A DNA stretch of 7,751 nucleotides from a virus. Taxonomy: Duplodnaviria; Heunggongvirae; Uroviricota; Caudoviricetes. Both the position numbers and the translations under genes were made by a program. Position 1 is the stretch's first letter. Every line of letters begins with the position of its first letter. Below, one piece after another: positions 1 through 7,614 of the stretch. The stretch lies in IMG/VR virus record IMGVR_UViG_2690316343_000010; one strand, 5' to 3'. Below the pieces are notes generated by a model. The model was not told the origin of the DNA. It made no database searches and worked only from the letters and a program-made list of their open reading frames with translations.

Positions 1-787
<787 letters not shown>

Positions 788-883: not shown

Positions 884-3064
884 TCATTCTTCCTCTGGAT
901 AGCTTGAACTTAAGAGCATATCCTGCGTGAACTGGTCATTAGCTGATTGATTGAAAGTAAAGAAAGATGGTTCATCTGGTCGAACGACAACTTGACCACC
1001 AAGTGAAACTTTCACTGGCTCCTGAATACGCTTACTCAAAGCACTAATTTCATCCCTCAGACCCTGAATATCTGCACTCGTTAATGCTGAATCTTGCTTA
1101 ATGTTGTTTAACTCTGGATGATTGAATCTTGCAATATTCATTGTGGCATTGTTAAACAATTCACCCATTGAACTAAAAATTCTACTCCATCCTTCGTTAA
1201 TCATATTCGGTTTATTAGGGTCACCAGAATACACGGGATTAAAGTCACTACCCACACCTACCCCAGACGGATGCATATTAGCGTTTTTGACTACTTCCTG
1301 ATTCATAAAATCCAGTGCTTTCTTCAATGCATATAAACCAAGAGTGACGCCTCTGATTTGTGGAATCATTGAAGCTAATGCTAACGCTGTTTCATAACCG
1401 TCATCAGCATAACCAATTGCAAGAGCACTACCTACACCACCAGCTACACCTTTCAGTTTTCCACCACCTTTACCAGTAGCTACCTGACCAGCCACCTGAT
1501 TAGCTCTTGTACCTAACGTTGTGATTGCTCTTGTCAGGTTCATAACCCCTGTAGTAGCACTGAATAGCGTCTTTGCAGATAACGCTATAGCAAGACCTTT
1601 GACGAAGTTGATAAAACCATCACCGACTTCATCAAGTAGTTTTCGTTTAGTGTCATCAAGGCTGTAATAGAACTTCTTAGTCTGTAAAATCCAGCCTTCA
1701 ATGGTGTTATTGAATACGCGAATATCATCTACACCAGCTTTAAGCATGTCGATAAGTCCACCGATAGCATCACCAGCGATAGAAGAACTCATCCCCATTT
1801 CACTAAGCAGGTTACTCAGGCTGGATAAGAAGCCGTTTAGCTCATCCTGTGAACCTGAGAAGATTTTCACCATCGTATCATCCCAATTGTTTGCTAACTT
1901 ACCTAAAGCTGTCTGAGTGCTCTTAGTGACTTCAGCCCAGCCACCCGCTTTATCAATCATCAAGCCCATCTGTTTAGCGACTTTAGGGAGAGTATCAGCG
2001 GAAAGTACCTTCCCGTTTTTCATGGCTGCATCAAGCTCTGTAGCAGTCATACCCAATGCTTCAGCGAATAGCTTAAATGCACCAGCCATACGGTCACCTA
2101 ACTGCCCACGTAATTCCTCAGCCTGAATCTTGCCCTTGCTCGCCATCTGCTCAAATGCTCTCAAAATGCCGTTTAGCTCATCGTTAGAAAGCCCCATTAA
2201 GCGACTCATAGCCGTTGCATTACCAAATAGCTCCTGTGTCTGTTCCTGTGACATAGAACCCTGAGCACCTGCTGCAAACTTAGCGTAGCTTGATAGCCCT
2301 TCAGAGATATTAAGACCTGTCTTGTCTGCTAAATTTCGAATAAATACCTCAGCTTCAGATGCTTTATCACCAAGTACAAACTTAGCGGCTCTCTGTGCGG
2401 AATCTCGTTTAAGACCTGCATTCATAATGGCCTTGTAAGCGTTAAGAGCACCCATCACAGAGTAAAATGCACCAGATAATTTAATCGCATTGCTTGCAAG
2501 ATTATTAAATGCGTCGCTTGTATTGTTAATGCTGGCGGTCTTTGTCTGTGACCTGAGTTTATTCAACGTTTCACGAAGAGATTGATTTAATTTTGCAAGT
2601 TCAGCGTTAAACTTTTCACTTCCAATATTACCAGCCTTACCGCTTAAGCTGTAATACTGTGCTTTAAACATTTTAGCCATCAGCGGATTAATATCACCAA
2701 GCTTAGACATATTCACGCTATGCGCTGCTGTGATTGCTCTGTTTCCGCTAATTCGTGGTTGCCTTGATTGTTTTGGAGGATTAACAGTGTCATTAAATCT
2801 GGTGGCAAACTGAAATGCTTTTGTGCTTCTTGCTCTCTGCTCAATCTTGTCAAAGGTCTTATTAAACTTCCTTTCAAGCTGCCCTAAAGAACTTGTCAGA
2901 TTGCTGTCAAGTTGCTTGGTATCGACCTTAAACGCTCTATTCAAATTGCGTTCAATTCTTTGTGCTGACTGCAAAGCTGCCTTTTCAACTCTTTGCAAGC
3001 CCTTAATAACGTTTTCACTGAAACTAAGTTCAACGATAAAACTATCAACTGTGAATTTGCTCAT
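884..3064 (-). CDS. Phage tail tape measure protein (726 aa)
   Basis: Coiled-coil-like N-terminus, then a segment (GNATAMSRLMGLSNDELNGILRAFEQMASKGKIQAEELRGQLGDRMAGAFKLFAEALGMTATELDAAMKNGKVLSADTLPKVAKQM) that matches my memory of the lambda-H-type tape measure domain, then Gly/Ala-rich hydrophobic segments typical of these proteins. ATG at 3064 with RBS AGAGGTGA upstream. Family call is from motif memory, not a search. Confidence 0.85.
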   Translation of the reverse strand: MSKFTVDSFIVELSFSENVIKGLQRVEKAALQSAQRIERNLNRAFKVDTKQLDSNLTSSLGQLERKFNKTFDKIEQRARSTKAFQFATRFNDTVNPPKQSRQPRISGNRAITAAHSVNMSKLGDINPLMAKMFKAQYYSLSGKAGNIGSEKFNAELAKLNQSLRETLNKLRSQTKTASINNTSDAFNNLASNAIKLSGAFYSVMGALNAYKAIMNAGLKRDSAQRAAKFVLGDKASEAEVFIRNLADKTGLNISEGLSSYAKFAAGAQGSMSQEQTQELFGNATAMSRLMGLSNDELNGILRAFEQMASKGKIQAEELRGQLGDRMAGAFKLFAEALGMTATELDAAMKNGKVLSADTLPKVAKQMGLMIDKAGGWAEVTKSTQTALGKLANNWDDTMVKIFSGSQDELNGFLSSLSNLLSEMGMSSSIAGDAIGGLIDMLKAGVDDIRVFNNTIEGWILQTKKFYYSLDDTKRKLLDEVGDGFINFVKGLAIALSAKTLFSATTGVMNLTRAITTLGTRANQVAGQVATGKGGGKLKGVAGGVGSALAIGYADDGYETALALASMIPQIRGVTLGLYALKKALDFMNQEVVKNANMHPSGVGVGSDFNPVYSGDPNKPNMINEGWSRIFSSMGELFNNATMNIARFNHPELNNIKQDSALTSADIQGLRDEISALSKRIQEPVKVSLGGQVVVRPDEPSFFTFNQSANDQFTQDMLLSSSYPEEE

Positions 3065-3393: not shown

Positions 3394-4104
3394 TTAAATA
3401 GCCTTTGCATATTTGCTAGAAATCTTCGTAAGCTGCTCAATATCAGCCTGCATAGCAATCTTCTTAGCATCTTCATATTCTTTCACAAGCTCTTTCATAG
3501 CCTGAAGCTCTCTTGAGAGATACAACTTAACATTATCAAGTTGCTTGTTACGTGATGCCAAGATGTTCTGTCTAGCAATTTCAGCGAGTTCTTCATCGCT
3601 CTTATTAGTCATGTAAATAAACTGACCAGCACCTCTTGATGCCTTAACCATCTTCACAATTCGATGTCCAGCAGGAAGACTACTAATCACGGCTGCGACG
3701 TTTTCTTGAAAAGTACCAAAACCATCATTATCTTCGTATTGGTAATAGACAAATGGTTTCTGTGACAATTCATCCTGAATCTCAAATTCTGACGGCTCAA
3801 TAGCTGATTGCATCAAGGTAACTTTGCTGTAAGCGTCATCTAATCTAAGGCGCTGTTCTTTCAGCAGTTGGTAATATTTCTTTTCAAGCTCAAGTAATGC
3901 TTCACTCTTGCAAATATCAGGCATCTCTTGAGGCTCAGGAGACACAAAGATGGTTGTTTTTGGTGACATCTTTAGCGATTGCTCAAGCTCAATACGCTTG
4001 TCATGCTCTTTACGCTGAATAGTGATAGCTGGATGTTCAGTCTGTGGCGACCAGTCACTGAAGCTATCAATCACTTTGCCATTAATGTAAATATCATTTG
4101 TCAT
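3394..4104 (-). CDS. Hypothetical protein (236 aa from ATG 4104; ORF track extends to a GTG at 4152)
   Basis: ATG at 4104 is preceded by GAGGAAAAG with a 7-nt spacer. Coiled-coil-rich C-terminus. Function not recognised; sits just upstream of the tape measure. Confidence 0.6.
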   Translation of the reverse strand: MTNDIYINGKVIDSFSDWSPQTEHPAITIQRKEHDKRIELEQSLKMSPKTTIFVSPEPQEMPDICKSEALLELEKKYYQLLKEQRLRLDDAYSKVTLMQSAIEPSEFEIQDELSQKPFVYYQYEDNDGFGTFQENVAAVISSLPAGHRIVKMVKASRGAGQFIYMTNKSDEELAEIARQNILASRNKQLDNVKLYLSRELQAMKELVKEYEDAKKIAMQADIEQLTKISSKYAKAI

Positions 4105-4327
4105 TGCTTTTCCTCTTCTAAGCGGAAGTGTTTCAGTTTTTAAAAAGCACACCTGACAGCCTATCTAAACTTAGAAGAGACTTAAAAGGCGGTTTGCCAA
4201 GTATGCTTTTTAAAAGCTGAATAGCCCTAGATAATTTCTTATAAAGGGCCATTCATAAGGTGAAGAAATTAAAACATCTAAAGGATTCAAAAAGGATTCA
4301 AACGAATGAACAAGAGTACTTTTCGAG

Positions 4328-4383
4328 ATGACCTCTCAGACTAACCTGAAAGGTCATGTAGCGAAAAGCATTGCACCTTTCAG
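4328..4383 (-). promoter_or_regulatory. Mutually exclusive hairpin pair in the intergenic leader (candidate attenuator or riboregulatory element)
   Basis: Plus-strand segment 4346-4357 (ctgaaaggtcat) can pair either with 4328-4339 (atgacctctcag, 12-bp stem with one mismatch) or with 4375-4383 (acctttcag, 9 bp). It lies in a 350-bp non-coding gap between two minus-strand operons. Confidence 0.25.
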
Positions 4384-4502
4384 AATAACTATCATTGATG
4401 TAGAATGATTAATAGTTTAATTCAGGAAGAGTTGCTCTTCCCTATTACCATCATCTCATGCTTAAGGTTATTTGTCAACAGCTTTTTAACAGATTGGTAA
4501 CA

Positions 4503-4580
4503 TCAATTCTTATTTACCGTATTACCTACCCAGCAACCAACAAATAACCCTAAAGTCATCCAGAGAATAACGAGTGTCAT
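4503..4580 (-). CDS. 25-aa hydrophobic micro-protein (MTLVILWMTLGLFVGCWVGNTVNKN), predicted single transmembrane helix
   Basis: ATG 4580..4578 overlaps the TAA stop of the upstream 101-aa gene (TAATG) and is preceded by GAGGTG at a 5-nt spacing. Below the ORF-track length cutoff. I translated it codon by codon. Confidence 0.4.
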   Translation of the reverse strand: MTLVILWMTLGLFVGCWVGNTVNKN

Positions 4581-4885
4581 TACATCACCTCGCTGTAAGG
4601 GTTTAATTCATTCTGATAGGTCAAGAATACATTCAGCTTCAATAATTGCTCAGGGCTTAAATCAAGTCGATTGCACTCTTCAATGATAAAGCGCTTATTG
4701 TATGGGTCTGTTACTTCCAGCTTGTGAACATAGTCACCAAGTTTAATTTCGTTGATTATATGCTTGTCAATATACGTTGACGCTTCAAAACAATGCATGA
4801 AATAGATATTAAAGCCCGACCTGTTCAGGTCAATCAACCAATTCATGGTTTCTTGGTCAACCATAATTTGCATTGGGTAATTCAT
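4580..4885 (-). CDS. Hypothetical protein (101 aa)
   Basis: Complete ORF with AGGAAGGA upstream of ATG 4885. No recognisable domain. Confidence 0.6.
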   Translation of the reverse strand: MNYPMQIMVDQETMNWLIDLNRSGFNIYFMHCFEASTYIDKHIINEIKLGDYVHKLEVTDPYNKRFIIEECNRLDLSPEQLLKLNVFLTYQNELNPYSEVM

Positions 4886-5031
4886 TTTTAAAATCCTTCC
4901 TGTATCGCATTCTAAGACGTTTTAACCCCTTTTTTAGACCACTTAAGGCGATTCCCTAAGTTACCCTGATTAGGGGCTTAAAAACGTTTCTGGTGCGTCT
5001 GGTAAAGCCTGAGAGATATGTTTTGCTGTTT

Positions 5032-5247
5032 TTAGCTCAAGTCTGAGACTAATAGCCCCATCTGGTGACCGTAGTCTTTTAACCAGCTTTGCTTAACCGG
5101 AGTCTTCAGAGAATAGTTAGGGGCTGACAAGTGAAGATAGATATCATCTTTGCCGTGGATACTTCCCCATCCTTCGTATAACTCAAGCAAGTTTTCAAAA
5201 TAACGAAATGCTTTATTAGTCTGAAGTTGTACTGTGATAGTTTTCAT
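5032..5247 (-). CDS. Hypothetical protein (71 aa from ATG 5247)
   Basis: ATG 5247..5245 overlaps the TGA stop of the upstream gene (TGATG) and has a G-rich SD (GGGGTG). The ORF-track start at 5259 has no RBS. Confidence 0.55.
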   Translation of the reverse strand: MKTITVQLQTNKAFRYFENLLELYEGWGSIHGKDDIYLHLSAPNYSLKTPVKQSWLKDYGHQMGLLVSDLS

Positions 5248-5468
5248 CAAGCACCCCATTCAGAAATAAGCTTAATTCCCTGCTCAAGCTGTTCAGGGTC
5301 GTTATAGTCGAGTATTACCAGTGGCTTTAATTCGTGTTTAAGCTGGTGGATTTGAGAGGGTTTTAATCGTTTGTTTGCTTTGAGGGTCACATCTTCAAAT
5401 TCAGCATCTGCTAAATTCTGTCTGATTAGGTGGCGGCCAAGTGTGGAATATTGGAACCTATAACACAT
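5247..5468 (-). CDS. Hypothetical protein (73 aa)
   Basis: ATG 5468..5466 overlaps the TAA stop of the upstream gene (TAATG), indicating translational coupling. Confidence 0.55.
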   Translation of the reverse strand: MCYRFQYSTLGRHLIRQNLADAEFEDVTLKANKRLKPSQIHQLKHELKPLVILDYNDPEQLEQGIKLISEWGA

Positions 5469-5758
5469 TAAACCTCCAATCTATCCGCCAGTTGATGGAC
5501 CTTAGCGCTTAACACCTGAATCATTGAGCAACCTGCTACTGCGGACTGTGCTTTGAGTAGTTCCAGTTGGCCCGTTGTGATTCTGATGGCCTTAGAACCC
5601 TCTGCGACGCCCTTAACGTTATCGAAAGGGCTAAGGTTTACCGACTCTTTTAAAATCTCCCCAACAAGCGCTGTGTGCTTCATATCGGGATATTTGGCTT
5701 TGATTGCTGCCAGTCGTTCAAATGCCTCTGGCAAAAGGCGCGTAACTGTGTGAGTCAT
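5468..5758 (-). CDS. Putative ribbon-helix-helix DNA-binding regulator (96 aa from ATG 5758)
   Basis: ATG 5758 is preceded by AAGGAG with a 9-nt spacer. N-terminus THTVTRLLPEAFERLAAIKAKYPDMKHTALVGEILKES fits the beta-strand, helix, turn, helix pattern of Arc/MetJ/CopG-type ribbon-helix-helix proteins. It is the first gene after a divergent promoter pair. Fold assignment is from motif memory only. Confidence 0.55.
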   Translation of the reverse strand: MTHTVTRLLPEAFERLAAIKAKYPDMKHTALVGEILKESVNLSPFDNVKGVAEGSKAIRITTGQLELLKAQSAVAGCSMIQVLSAKVHQLADRLEV

Positions 5759-5794
5759 TGTAAAAATCTCCTTAAATCTCTTACTCATACTACA

Positions 5795-5823
5795 ATCTTA
5801 ACATCTATTTAACATATTGTCAG
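5795..5823 (-). promoter_or_regulatory. Sigma70-like promoter (leftward) for the regulator operon
   Basis: Minus strand: -35 CTGACA (5823..5818), 17-nt spacer, -10 TAAGAT (5800..5795), about 40 nt upstream of ATG 5758. Confidence 0.35.
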
Positions 5824-5845
5824 TACCTCATTTACATGATACTAT
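5817..5845 (+). promoter_or_regulatory. Sigma70-like promoter (rightward) with extended -10
   Basis: Plus strand: -35 TTGTCA (5817-5822), 17-nt spacer, TG-n-TACTAT (5837-5845). Its -35 overlaps the -35 of the leftward promoter, a back-to-back divergent arrangement. Confidence 0.4.
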
Positions 5846-5895: not shown

Positions 5896-6072
5896 ATGCA
5901 TGATTTTTTCACAGCAATTATTGAATCTCATCGTTTTAGCTCGTTGGGCTTTGCGGTATTTATTGTGCTATTGGTGTTTTGCGTTATGAATCGAGTCATT
6001 ACAAAAAAGACAAAGCTTACAATTCGACTTAAACTTCTTCGTGTTGAGATAGAGATTTCAGTAAATAAATAG
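5896..6072 (+). CDS. Small membrane protein (58 aa from ATG 5896): one hydrophobic helix followed by a basic C-terminal tail
   Basis: The only plus-strand ORF that lies in an intergenic gap. AAGGAAAA RBS 6 nt before ATG 5896, and the rightward promoter sits about 50 nt upstream. Sequence MHDFFTAIIESHRFSSLGFAVFIVLLVFCVMNRVITKKTKLTIRLKLLRVEIEISVNK. Convergent with the replication operon. Confidence 0.4.
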   Translation: MHDFFTAIIESHRFSSLGFAVFIVLLVFCVMNRVITKKTKLTIRLKLLRVEIEISVNK

Positions 6073-6159: not shown

Positions 6160-6378
6160 TGAATCCCATAAATCGTAATGATACAGCACCGCAAACTTCA
6201 AAGCGTCAATCTTTAAATCTGTCACATCATCGACGAAATAATAATCCCTCCCTTCTTTCTTCGGTCGAATCCGGTAAACTTCCCCGTGAGTATCTTTCAT
6301 CAAGTAACCTTCACGAGAAATGCTGTAACGTCTGAGTAAATAGTCACGGTATTTTCTCTCGCCATTATAAGTTTTCAT
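6082..6378 (-). CDS. Hypothetical protein (98 aa), translationally coupled to the replication initiator
   Basis: ATG 6378..6376 overlaps the TAA stop of the upstream gene (TAATG) and has a GGAGGA SD. No recognisable domain. Confidence 0.6.
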   Translation of the reverse strand: MKTYNGERKYRDYLLRRYSISREGYLMKDTHGEVYRIRPKKEGRDYYFVDDVTDLKIDALKFAVLYHYDLWDSVHQLRLKDGDPGNLRATNIIKGKCR

Positions 6379-7331
6379 TAAAACATTCCTCCACCATAAA
6401 CACGTCTGACTTTAACTTTTTCTTTCTTTGGCTCGGTGTGAGTTTTCTTTTTTGGTGTAAAAGTAAAATCATCGTCACTATCATCAAAGTCATCGAGGTC
6501 ACTAACCTTGTTCTTTAGCTTCGCATTTCTGAATCTTTCTTTAATTTCTGCTTTACGCTGTTCACGTTTCAATTCCTTTTCAGGGTCTTCTTCATCATCA
6601 AGGTCAACATCCGGTAATTCATCATCAGTGGCGGGGCACTGTGTGTTTTTATGGTCACTACTAGCAATCACATCAGAGATTTTATCTTCCTTTTTAACGA
6701 CCTCTTTAGCAGCTTCACTATCAAGGTCATCTAAGTCAGATGTTTTAACAGTCTCTTTAATAGCCTCTTCAATACCAAGAGAATCACATTCATGTGAATC
6801 ACAGAGCGAAGCTCCCTTCTTAAAATATTCTTCTTCAAAGTCATCTTCTTTATTGTTATTAATAAGTTCTTTCTTGTTATTACTGTTATTATACGTGTCA
6901 AAGATTTTGACTGACTGAGTAAAAAATTTTGACTCAGTGGGTAAAGAATTTTGACTCAGTGGGTCATCTTTCTTGACTGACTGAGTAACTTTAGACTCCA
7001 GCTTTGCCTTTCTGGCTTCCTTAGCTGTAAGCTCTGTTAAAACCTCCGGTACTTCATCAAGTGAATAAACTTTAATAACACACTGATTGCTTGCAACGTT
7101 AGTTTTCTTGATTAAACCATGTGCCTCAAGTTGTTTCATACATGCAATCACGGATGTTCTTGTGATTCCAGCATACTGACCAAGATGAGCATATGAAGGG
7201 GTATAATATTGCCCCTTATCGTGATAAAACTTTTGTTCATTCAACATGACAGTGTAAATAATACGGTCGGCAGCTTTAACGCCATTAGTCATCTGATAAA
7301 TACGGTCATCAAACATGTGGAATTTTTCCAT
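6378..7331 (-). CDS. Lambda-O-like replication initiator / replisome organiser (317 aa from ATG 7331)
   Basis: ATG 7331 has an AAAGGA RBS; the ORF-track start at 7388 is a TTG lying inside a terminator hairpin. The N-terminal 100 aa (for example AHLGQYAGITRTSVIACMKQLEAHGLIKK) resembles the winged-helix DNA-binding domain of phage O-type initiators. Four phased iterons and an AT-rich tract lie inside the gene, encoding the inter-domain linker, as in lambda ori. The C-terminal half is low-complexity and rich in Asp, Glu and Lys. Confidence 0.7.
   Translation of the reverse strand: MEKFHMFDDRIYQMTNGVKAADRIIYTVMLNEQKFYHDKGQYYTPSYAHLGQYAGITRTSVIACMKQLEAHGLIKKTNVASNQCVIKVYSLDEVPEVLTELTAKEARKAKLESKVTQSVKKDDPLSQNSLPTESKFFTQSVKIFDTYNNSNNKKELINNNKEDDFEEEYFKKGASLCDSHECDSLGIEEAIKETVKTSDLDDLDSEAAKEVVKKEDKISDVIASSDHKNTQCPATDDELPDVDLDDEEDPEKELKREQRKAEIKERFRNAKLKNKVSDLDDFDDSDDDFTFTPKKKTHTEPKKEKVKVRRVYGGGMF
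6841..6896 (-). other. AT-rich tract flanking the iterons (candidate DNA-unwinding element)
   Basis: Strongly AT-rich stretch with three copies of TGTTATT, lying directly downstream of the iterons in the direction of gene transcription. This is the same order as in lambda ori (iterons, then AT-rich region). Confidence 0.4.
6905..6988 (-). repeat. Four 18-bp iterons with 22-bp phasing (putative initiator binding sites of an intragenic replication origin)
   Basis: R1 6905-6922 ttttgactgactgagtaa, R2 6927-6944 ttttgactcagtgggtaa, R3 6949-6966 ttttgactcagtgggtca, R4 6971-6988 tcttgactgactgagtaa. Two sequence types in A-B-B-A order; the type-A core ACTGAGT is the reverse complement of the type-B core ACTCAGT. 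Confidence 0.65.
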
Positions 7332-7521: not shown

Positions 7522-7614
7522 NNNNNNNNNNNNNNNNNNNNNNNNNNNNNNNNNNNNNNNNNNNNNNNNNNNNNNNNNNNNNNNNNNNNNNNNNNNNNNN
7601 NNNNNNNNNNNNNN
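7522..7614. other. Run of 93 N (scaffold or assembly gap)
   Basis: Literal n characters in the sequence. The ORF-track entries 7450..7659 and 7511..7702 span it and are artefacts. Confidence 0.95.

Follow-up and report, generated by a model that had tools for sequence, protein, structure and literature searches.

The DNA stretch analysed here (hereafter the window; 7,751 nucleotides (nt) of IMG/VR virus record IMGVR_UViG_2690316343_000010, assigned to the Caudoviricetes) carries on its minus strand, between positions 4503 and 5758, a block of five small genes that we name g1 to g5. The block is interpreted as the promoter-proximal early, or regulatory, control operon of a satellite-like island in which the product of g1, a candidate ribbon-helix-helix (RHH) protein, is the likely repeat-binding regulator. 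Our rough probability for this reading is 0.45. Its new parts are the island itself, apparently undescribed and linked to Felix O1-like phages, and a short TGTTA code that island and phages appear to share. The window is almost certainly the core of a chromosomal island and not a segment of a lambdoid phage.

Promoters and phased TGTTR repeats

The block is bracketed by two promoters of the σ70 type, both of which carry TGTTR direct repeats phased by 11 bp. The upstream promoter P_g1 (5795..5826, minus strand), identified by promoter scanning, has the −35 sequence CTGACA (5823-5818; TTGACA in relatives), a 17-nt spacer and the −10 sequence TAAGAT (5800-5795). Phased TGTTA repeats at 5814-5799 overlie its spacer and −10 element, and a third repeat, fused with the −35, is seen in relatives (TGTTGACA; alignment of 8 loci). 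The second promoter, P_late (4450..4502, minus strand), lies directly 3′ of g5. It has an invariant −35 TTGACA (4478-4473), again a 17-nt spacer, and a −10 GATGAT (4455-4450) that is CATAAT in most relatives. Three direct repeats (TGTTA/TGTTA/TGTTG) with an 11-nt period extend from 4502 to 4476 and end in the −35 (TGTTGACA); repeats and promoter are conserved in all loci compared.

The two-repeat pattern occurs three times in the window, always at P_g1 or P_late, against 0.15 expected occurrences, and the triple pattern once against none in 200 shuffled sequences. About 65 occurrences were counted in 20 island loci, all but three or four of them at island promoters. The association holds whichever g1 or g4 allele is present, including in differently organised islands that carry the other g1 allele.

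g1, a candidate ribbon-helix-helix regulator

g1 (5468..5758, minus strand; start codon ATG at 5758) codes for a basic protein of 96 amino acids (aa), whose isoelectric point (pI) is 8.9 in the window and 8.9-9.8 across the family. The gene is universal in the island family and occurs as at least two divergent allele groups. A previous reading of the window from its sequence alone (the sequence-only reading) had called this first gene RHH-like, a description borne out, at low model confidence, by structure prediction. The AlphaFold2 (AF2) model, built on 36 close homologues, has a β-α-α topology twice with a disordered linker in between (E3-7 H10-22 H28-36 / E57-61 H62-75 H79-93; E, strand; H, helix). 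Its nine best Foldseek matches in the Protein Data Bank (PDB) are chains of TraY from the F-plasmid relaxosome (probability 0.63-0.90; template modelling (TM) score 0.49-0.56), and the identity of all nine chains was checked and confirmed. TraY is a classical single-chain tandem RHH protein. The next matches are DndE and then single-chain Arc (TM 0.51). A few g1 members also gave sub-threshold Pfam matches to Omega_Repress (E 0.034, two members) and to DndE (E 0.023). The ribbon residues H3 T4 T6 R7 and I58 R59 I60 (motifs HT.TR and IRI) are invariant between g1 alleles that are only 32-35% identical. g1 is probably an RHH-type DNA binder with a TraY-like, single-chain double RHH architecture; its assignment as the protein that binds the TGTTR repeats is more tentative and falls somewhat short of even odds.

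TraY (PDB 9f0x and related entries) resembles the g1 model in being small and basic and in combining two β-α-α units in one chain. It binds repeated subsites, as g1 would be expected to do. The two proteins differ in length (131 aa for TraY, 96 aa for g1), share no detectable sequence similarity and belong to different contexts, a conjugative relaxosome and a recombinase island, respectively. Arc and Mnt (immI region of phage P22) and the ω repressor of pSM19035 are small RHH autoregulators whose operators overlap the core promoter, with units one helical turn apart, and g1 is predicted to be alike in these respects. They act, however, as homodimers on palindromic or heptad sites, whereas g1 would be a covalent pseudo-dimer on asymmetric 5-bp direct repeats.

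The island family

The genes on the minus strand of the window follow the order replication initiator, 98-aa gene, g1-g5, 252/236-aa gene, 68-aa gene, tape-measure gene and Dit-like (distal tail) gene. The block is positioned between the replication and structural modules, as the sequence-only reading had placed it. The lambdoid context assumed in that reading is not upheld: neither the window nor its relatives carry lambdoid genes, and searches in Pfam and PHROGs detected neither Nin nor Q families.

Megablast matches the window in the chromosomes of 533 of the 5,426 complete E. coli genomes; for the 1.7-kb block region the number is 478, with at least 80% of it found in only 20 genomes because the region is mosaic. 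The share of complete E. coli genomes with the island is thus put at about 9%. The island is about 11 kb long and comprises genes for a large serine recombinase, the Dit-like, tape-measure, 68-aa and ~236-aa proteins, the block, the replication module, a Dam-like methyltransferase and a small serine recombinase. The serine recombinases flank the island, the large one at one end, and insertion sites differ (wrbA/ymdF, tonB/yciI, inside yecE, dinB/lafU). The layout is constant over 26 loci: a divergent membrane gene, the replication module (of two types, Rep plus the 98-aa protein or a 185-aa protein), g1, a middle cassette, g4-g5, promoter plus leader, the 236-aa gene and the downstream genes. 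The recognisable virion genes of the island are those for the tape-measure and Dit-like proteins only.

The block had been likened to the variable nin-type accessory region of lambdoid phages. It is instead fixed and syntenic in all 26 loci and changes its gene content only in the g2/g3 slot, so that the comparison fits at most g2 and g3. Invariance of the block in all relatives, which the same reading had held would count against an accessory role, was found for gene order and for the presence of g1, g4 and g5 (26 of 26 loci), but the alleles are mosaic, the divergent ones assort freely and the middle slot changes. Homologues of g1 and g4 are confined to Escherichia (coli, albertii), Shigella and Citrobacter, where every one is annotated as hypothetical. 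A tblastn search of 50,697 phage genomes with the 98-, 236- and 68-aa proteins and with an HNH protein of the middle slot (see below) gave no match, a result that speaks to close homologues only. No description of the island was retrieved from the literature, which is not proof that none exists.

The link to Felix O1-like phages

The only similarity of the island to sequenced phages is to Felix O1-like myoviruses. The Dit-like gene (268-703 of the window) has 92-93% nucleotide identity to about 200 Felixounavirus genomes, and the tape-measure gene (884-3064) shares short patches of 88% nucleotide identity with phage garuso, at 33% protein identity overall. Dit-like and tape-measure genes are adjacent in garuso, in the same order as in the island. 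Among islands the tape-measure proteins are 42-96% identical. The identity pattern of the tail genes suggests repeated exchange with, or matching to, different phages.

Phased TGTTR repeats also occur in garuso, where 18 were counted against 1.4 ± 1.3 expected; 13 of the 18 lie within 49,434-50,157. This array lies within 1.6 kb of non-coding DNA in which (C/T)TGTTA(A/G) units stand densely, in both orientations, and the region is conserved in 255 Ounavirinae records, Felix O1 included. Some phage records start inside the array region, so the array may be located near the genome ends. What island promoters and phage array share is the short phased motif only, with no extended sequence similarity. 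The Felix O1 genome paper gives the temporal regulation of the phage as unknown and does not describe the TGTTA array (PMC3185647).

The island thus has the look of an element, of satellite or defence type, whose tail genes are exchanged with those of Felix O1-like phages. In genomic terms it resembles a phage satellite of virulent myoviruses of the Felix O1 type (Ounavirinae), or else an anti-phage parasite of these. Whether it would depend on such phages as helpers is evenly balanced. No satellite of Felix O1-like phages was found described in the literature searched.

Two garuso proteins were considered as relatives of g1 and rejected. The aligned part of garuso_22 (16.6 bits with the g1 profile against the six-frame translation of garuso) is helical and lacks both ribbon motifs, and gp8, annotated as a "transcriptional regulatory protein", has an unrelated helix-turn-helix (HTH) of the Cro/C1 type.

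Proposed switch and its weaknesses

RHH dimers bound to the Arc and Mnt operators sit in successive major grooves, at a distance of about 11 bp, and an asymmetric pseudo-dimer is expected to read an asymmetric subsite in direct repeats. By analogy, g1 would bind the TGTTR repeats head-to-tail, each asymmetric pseudo-dimer reading one asymmetric 5-bp subsite, with neighbouring molecules one helical turn apart as RHH dimers are on those operators. The repeats of P_g1 cover its core elements, which suggests that g1 would repress its own transcription. Those of P_late abut and overlap the −35, which suggests that g1 would gate this promoter and hence the tape-measure/Dit operon; a structured, terminator-bearing leader (see below) would insulate the operon further. 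During infection, the switch might be flipped by a helper protein reading the shared TGTTA code or, alternatively, g1 might act on the array of the helper.

A more far-reaching version of this model, doubtful as a whole, is that virulent Felix O1-type myoviruses have a family of satellites, or of parasitic defence islands, that is so far undescribed and is represented by these islands in Escherichia, Shigella and Citrobacter, with the five genes as its control module. g1 would read the shared TGTTA code and either sense the TGTTA-binding protein of the helper or sabotage its array, and the leader would gate the tape-measure and Dit proteins of the island, by which the tails of the helper would be remodelled or poisoned. 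If true, about one in eleven complete E. coli genomes has a mobile element tied to Felix O1-like phages, which are widely used in Salmonella and E. coli typing, biocontrol and therapy. The block would be the switch of this element, and g1 with the TGTTA repeats would provide a handle on phage sensing or interference as well as on the role of the conserved 1.6-kb array of the Ounavirinae. To bring along its own tape-measure and distal-tail proteins would be an unusual strategy for a satellite-like element, and such islands could alter the host range or the yield of therapeutic Felix O1-like phages.

Several points weigh against the interpretation of the block as a g1-controlled operon of a satellite. 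The AF2 model of g1 is of low confidence (predicted local distance difference test, pLDDT, 59.6), and its Foldseek matches have E-values of 0.06-0.3 at TM scores around 0.5, none with E ≤ 0.001. No RHH model of Pfam scores above threshold for g1, and a profile search of the PDB with g1 was also negative. Comparison of the N- and C-terminal halves of g1 with hhalign gave no significant similarity, so the tandem-repeat claim rests on the predicted topology and not on sequence; the halves of g4, and g1 against g4, were likewise without significant similarity (best P 0.04-0.05 across the g1/g4 tests). The TGTTR binder could be a helper-encoded or host protein instead of g1. The boxes of PhoP and PhoB are similar in sequence and also consist of direct repeats phased by 11 bp, and the basic 68-aa protein of the island is another candidate. 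The hexamers of P_late are near-consensus, and its "late" status is therefore deduced from gene content. The phage TGTTA array, for its part, could serve as an origin, in packaging or in regulation. Finally, no packaging or capsid gene was recognised in the island, and several island copies are decayed (insertion sequence (IS) elements in relatives, a frameshifted Dit-like gene in the window).

Organisation and conservation of the five genes

The five small open reading frames (ORFs) of the sequence-only reading were all recovered on the minus strand. The start codon of g2 (5247..5468; 73 aa) overlaps the stop codon of g1 (TAATG, 5470-5466), that of g3 (5032..5247; 71 aa) overlaps the g2 stop (TGATG, 5249-5245), and that of g5 (4503..4580; 25 aa) overlaps the stop of g4 (4580..4885; 101 aa, acidic; TAATG, 4582-4578). 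These overlaps are exactly those that had been noted, but the genes are not a chain of five: a non-coding gap of 146 nt (4886..5031, minus strand) separates g3 from g4 and thus divides the block into two coupled sets, g1-g2-g3 and g4-g5. The gap is moderately structured (RNA fold z-score −1.9) and exists as at least three sequence types that track the upstream cassette and not the g4 allele (alignment of 20 loci). A plausible Shine-Dalgarno sequence precedes each of the five start codons. An alternative ATG for g1 at 5788 is missing in the related locus L004, while the ATG at 5758 is preceded by the Shine-Dalgarno AAGGAG; 96 aa is therefore taken as the right length of g1.

The proteins were compared by tblastn with eight related E. 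coli loci and then with 17 more. Each of the five was recovered as an intact ORF, in conserved order, with amino-acid identities of 25-100% (30-98% for g1, 53-99% for g2, 33-100% for g3, 25-95% for g4 and 60-92% for g5). All five genes are under purifying selection, the ratio of non-synonymous to synonymous substitution rates (dN/dS; pairwise Nei-Gojobori method) within allele groups ranging from 0.06 to 0.40 over the five. Gene by gene it is 0.2 for g1, 0.14-0.4 for g2, 0.06-0.57 for g3 and 0.20 for g5 (114 pairs, median dS 0.83). The five ORFs are, on this comparative evidence, very probably real genes. g2 and g5 are left unannotated by the NCBI Prokaryotic Genome Annotation Pipeline (PGAP) in RefSeq relatives, and the selection data argue that both merit annotation.

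The sequence-only reading had found the genes unrecognisable apart from the RHH-like g1, and none of the five proteins has a match in Pfam, PHROGs, PADLOC, NCBIfam or the PDB sequences. A tblastn search of the 50,697 phage genomes with the five concatenated proteins gave no match either, which is read as absence of close homologues only, nor did a large protein search with a concatenated g1-g5 allele alignment as a single query.

g4 and the anti-defence explanation

Four other explanations were weighed, none of them mutually exclusive with a role of the block as control operon. The first concerns mainly the g2/g3 cassette and g4, a universal gene with two alleles (101 and 107 aa, 25-35% identical). 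The protein has a pI of 4.7 and a net charge of −7 in the window, and pI values of 4.4-4.7 over both alleles. Its predicted topology, of low confidence, is β-α-α twice with an extra strand, similar to that of g1 but weaker; the protein is acidic and unlikely to be a DNA binder. DNA mimics of the Ocr and ArdA types are acidic too, and the five genes might be accessory functions for anti-defence or host takeover, with g4 as a DNA mimic or anti-restriction protein and g2/g3 neutralising host defences or helper functions. We consider this unlikely. Gene content does differ between islands in the g2/g3 slot and no protein belongs to a known family, as would suit such genes, but g1, g4 and g5 are universal and keep their place, which sets them apart from typical accessory hot spots. 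Moreover, no window protein matches PADLOC or an anti-defence family, none of the five has a homologue by tblastn in the phage genomes searched, and g1 combines a predicted DNA-binding-type fold with operator-like repeats beside it.

The middle cassette and the serine recombinases

Over the 26 loci, the slot between g1 and g4 contains one of four sets: g2 and g3; a 128-aa g2-HTH protein; a g3 variant (g3c) with an HNH gene; or an HNH gene with g2b and g3b. g2 is an orphan domain. g3 is an orphan small protein with three alleles, for which only three true clusters of relatives were found among 1.84 billion representatives; matches to proteins of 780-1674 aa were rejected as motif-level noise, a single 33-residue stretch in TPR/CUB repeat proteins. 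The 128-aa protein replaces g2/g3 in many islands (for example at L008 7642-8028, L012 9468-9854 and L017 318-698) and consists of the g2 domain at its N-terminus and a resolvase-type HTH at its C-terminus, the latter assigned from sub-threshold Pfam matches to HTH_28/HTH_7 and from the HTH of γδ resolvase (E 0.64). In other islands the slot holds a 95-aa HNH endonuclease (HNH_3, 1.8e-8). g2/g3 may be an exchangeable accessory cassette, possibly working with the serine recombinases of the island, as suggested by the fusion of the g2 domain to a resolvase-type HTH elsewhere in the family.

This fusion is also one of the arguments for a second explanation, which we regard as improbable: one or more of g1-g3 would be recombination directionality factors (RDFs) or excisionase-like factors that steer the large serine recombinase or the small one, of resolvase/invertase type, and the TGTTR repeats would be architectural. 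Large serine recombinases, such as the island encodes, need a small, family-unspecific RDF for excision, and the fold closest to g1, that of TraY, belongs to an architectural accessory factor in a DNA-processing complex. The repeats, however, lie precisely on promoter hexamers and not at the island ends, and no block protein is similar to a known RDF in Pfam, PHROGs or PDB sequence searches. In the pair formed by PLE, an element of Vibrio cholerae that resembles phage-inducible chromosomal islands, and phage ICP1 it is the helper that supplies the RDF, so an island-encoded one is not required.

The leader downstream of P_late

Transcription of the block runs on into a leader of about 340 nt (4105..4445, minus strand), which lies beyond the block coordinates and connects P_late to the 252-aa gene. 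No other DNA of the island family is as well conserved as the stretch from P_late to the 236/252-aa gene. The leader RNA has a minimum free energy of −111 kcal/mol, against −72 ± 5 kcal/mol for shuffled sequences (z −7.5). A promoter-proximal hairpin is retained across 18 sequence variants, and a hairpin of 11-13 bp across 15 variants with changes in both arms (covariation). A long stem with compensatory alleles directly precedes the ribosome-binding site, and terminator-like hairpins (intrinsic terminators) are found in most islands. The leader also contains an invariant 20-mer, GAAAGGTGCAATGCTTTTCG, which is present once per island and not in phages. Rfam detected no family between 3900 and 6200 of the window, leader included, and blastn of the leader and promoter region against phages gave no match. 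A σ54 promoter at the TTGGCA of the leader was considered and rejected as there is no GC at the −12 position.

This architecture recalls the PR′-tR′ region of lambda under Q and the CI RNA of P4, in which a constitutive-looking promoter and a structured, terminator-bearing leader precede structural genes and small genes lie upstream. A third explanation is accordingly a late-gene antitermination switch, in which g4-g5, or the leader RNA acting as P4 CI RNA does, would control read-through into the tape-measure/Dit operon. It agrees with the consensus −35 and near-consensus −10 followed by 340-520 nt of leader with covarying hairpins, invariant 20-mer and, in most islands, terminators, and with the constant location of g4-g5 next to P_late and leader, like that of Q upstream of PR′-tR′. 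We nonetheless give it a low probability. g4 is acidic and without similarity to Q or to any antiterminator, g5 also lacks Q homology, g4 alleles assort freely with leader variants, and the last long hairpin of the leader has no U-tract in one allele. With no Rfam match and with terminators that are predicted, the resemblance appears to be one of layout only.

g5 and the divergent membrane gene

g5 encodes a hydrophobic single-helix micropeptide of 21-25 aa, known as three sequence types, one of them of 21 aa. Its start codon overlaps the g4 stop (TAATG) in every island. This membrane micropeptide forms a universal pair with g4, and our guess is that the pair modulates g1 or a helper protein. 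Its assignment as a lipoprotein, considered because of a lipobox-like motif (LFVGC), was rejected; the 21-aa allele lacks the cysteine, and a basic n-region is absent.

A second small membrane protein is encoded divergently from the block. The promoter scan identified two promoters back-to-back at 5795-5845, P_g1 reading into g1 and the other (TTGTCA-17-TACTAT, 5817-5845, plus strand), whose −35 shares bases with that of P_g1, reading into an ORF for a 58-aa single-pass membrane protein (5896-6072, plus strand; ATG at 5896). This ORF is present in every island as three alleles (dN/dS 0.27 for allele c) and is annotated by PGAP in only some relatives (L007 and L009). A hairpin over its Shine-Dalgarno sequence is kept, with another sequence, in a different allele. 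A membrane-toxin module, with g5 and possibly the 58-aa protein as abortive-infection or addiction toxin and g4 as partner or antidote, would draw on the conserved helix of g5, its translational coupling to g4 and the preservation of that hairpin, but appears very improbable given that no family is matched, that the hairpin is not more stable than shuffled sequences (z −0.34) and that both proteins are too small for inference from sequence.

Comparison with known satellites and with lambda

The features of a control operon in a satellite-like element can be compared with those of the str-xis-rep genes of SaPIs and related phage-inducible chromosomal islands (PICIs) and with PLE. Like the island described here, these are small integrated elements with a recombinase, a replication initiator of their own and a dense run of small orphan genes; virion genes are almost absent, and a genetic link ties each to one specific helper lineage. 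The satellite-type genome layout is indeed present: about 11 kb, with its own recombinase and replication module and without most virion and lysis genes. PLE, too, depends on a large serine recombinase, and the phage it parasitises, ICP1, is a virulent myovirus. In contrast, no protein of the block or of the island matches components of PICIs, PLE or P4 (Pfam, PHROGs, PADLOC, NCBIfam). No master repressor of the Stl/CI type was recognised in the island, whose divergent gene codes for the 58-aa membrane protein. The island encodes both tape-measure and Dit-like proteins, which to our knowledge are not known from the satellite families described.

With the lambda nin region the block shares only small overlapping genes between a replication gene and a control point of late genes. 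nin is an accessory stretch that tolerates deletion, whereas the block is a fixed core without lambdoid backbone and without the Nin, Q, O and P families.

Other features of the window and decay of island copies

The replication-initiator-like protein (317-336 aa; 7388/7331..6378, minus strand) has PHROG matches to replication initiators (1.6e-10) and contains a winged-helix region. The 98-aa gene overlaps the stop codon of the initiator gene and is followed by a gap of ~290 nt to g1; between g5 and the 252/236-aa gene the gap is ~350 nt. The tape-measure protein (726 aa, minus strand) was identified by Pfam TMP_3 (2e-21) and PHROG (4e-93) matches, and the Dit-like tail gene (minus strand), called "phage baseplate protein" in relatives, by Pfam Dit_like (7e-19). 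The 236/252-aa gene (3394-4152, minus strand) is universal in the island and highly divergent (25-91% identity). Its product has no match in Pfam, NCBIfam, PHROGs or PADLOC, so the name "transposase" given to it by PGAP in several RefSeq relatives looks unsupported.

In relatives, the large recombinase gene is interrupted by ISEc12, the Dit-like gene by IS1203 and the tape-measure gene by an IS3-family element (L003 3839-7948; L006 1223-3309; L007 2268-5620). Such inactivated copies indicate that many chromosomal copies of the island are decaying. In the window the Dit-like gene (34-727, minus strand) is broken: residues 1-49 and 77-255 of its homologue in L002 are encoded in different frames, ~27 codons are replaced, and the frame extends past the left end. 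Either the gene is a pseudogene here or the assembly is in error.

A run of 93 N (masked positions) occupies 7522-7614, immediately upstream of the replication gene. In the replication-initiator-like protein, the C-terminal half (6378-7000, minus strand) is an acidic, low-complexity tail rich in D, E and K, which gives rise to a spurious long serine-rich ORF on the opposite strand (6508-6918). The N-terminal winged-helix part of the initiator-like protein is 37-77% identical between islands, and the product of the adjoining 98-aa gene 86-89%.

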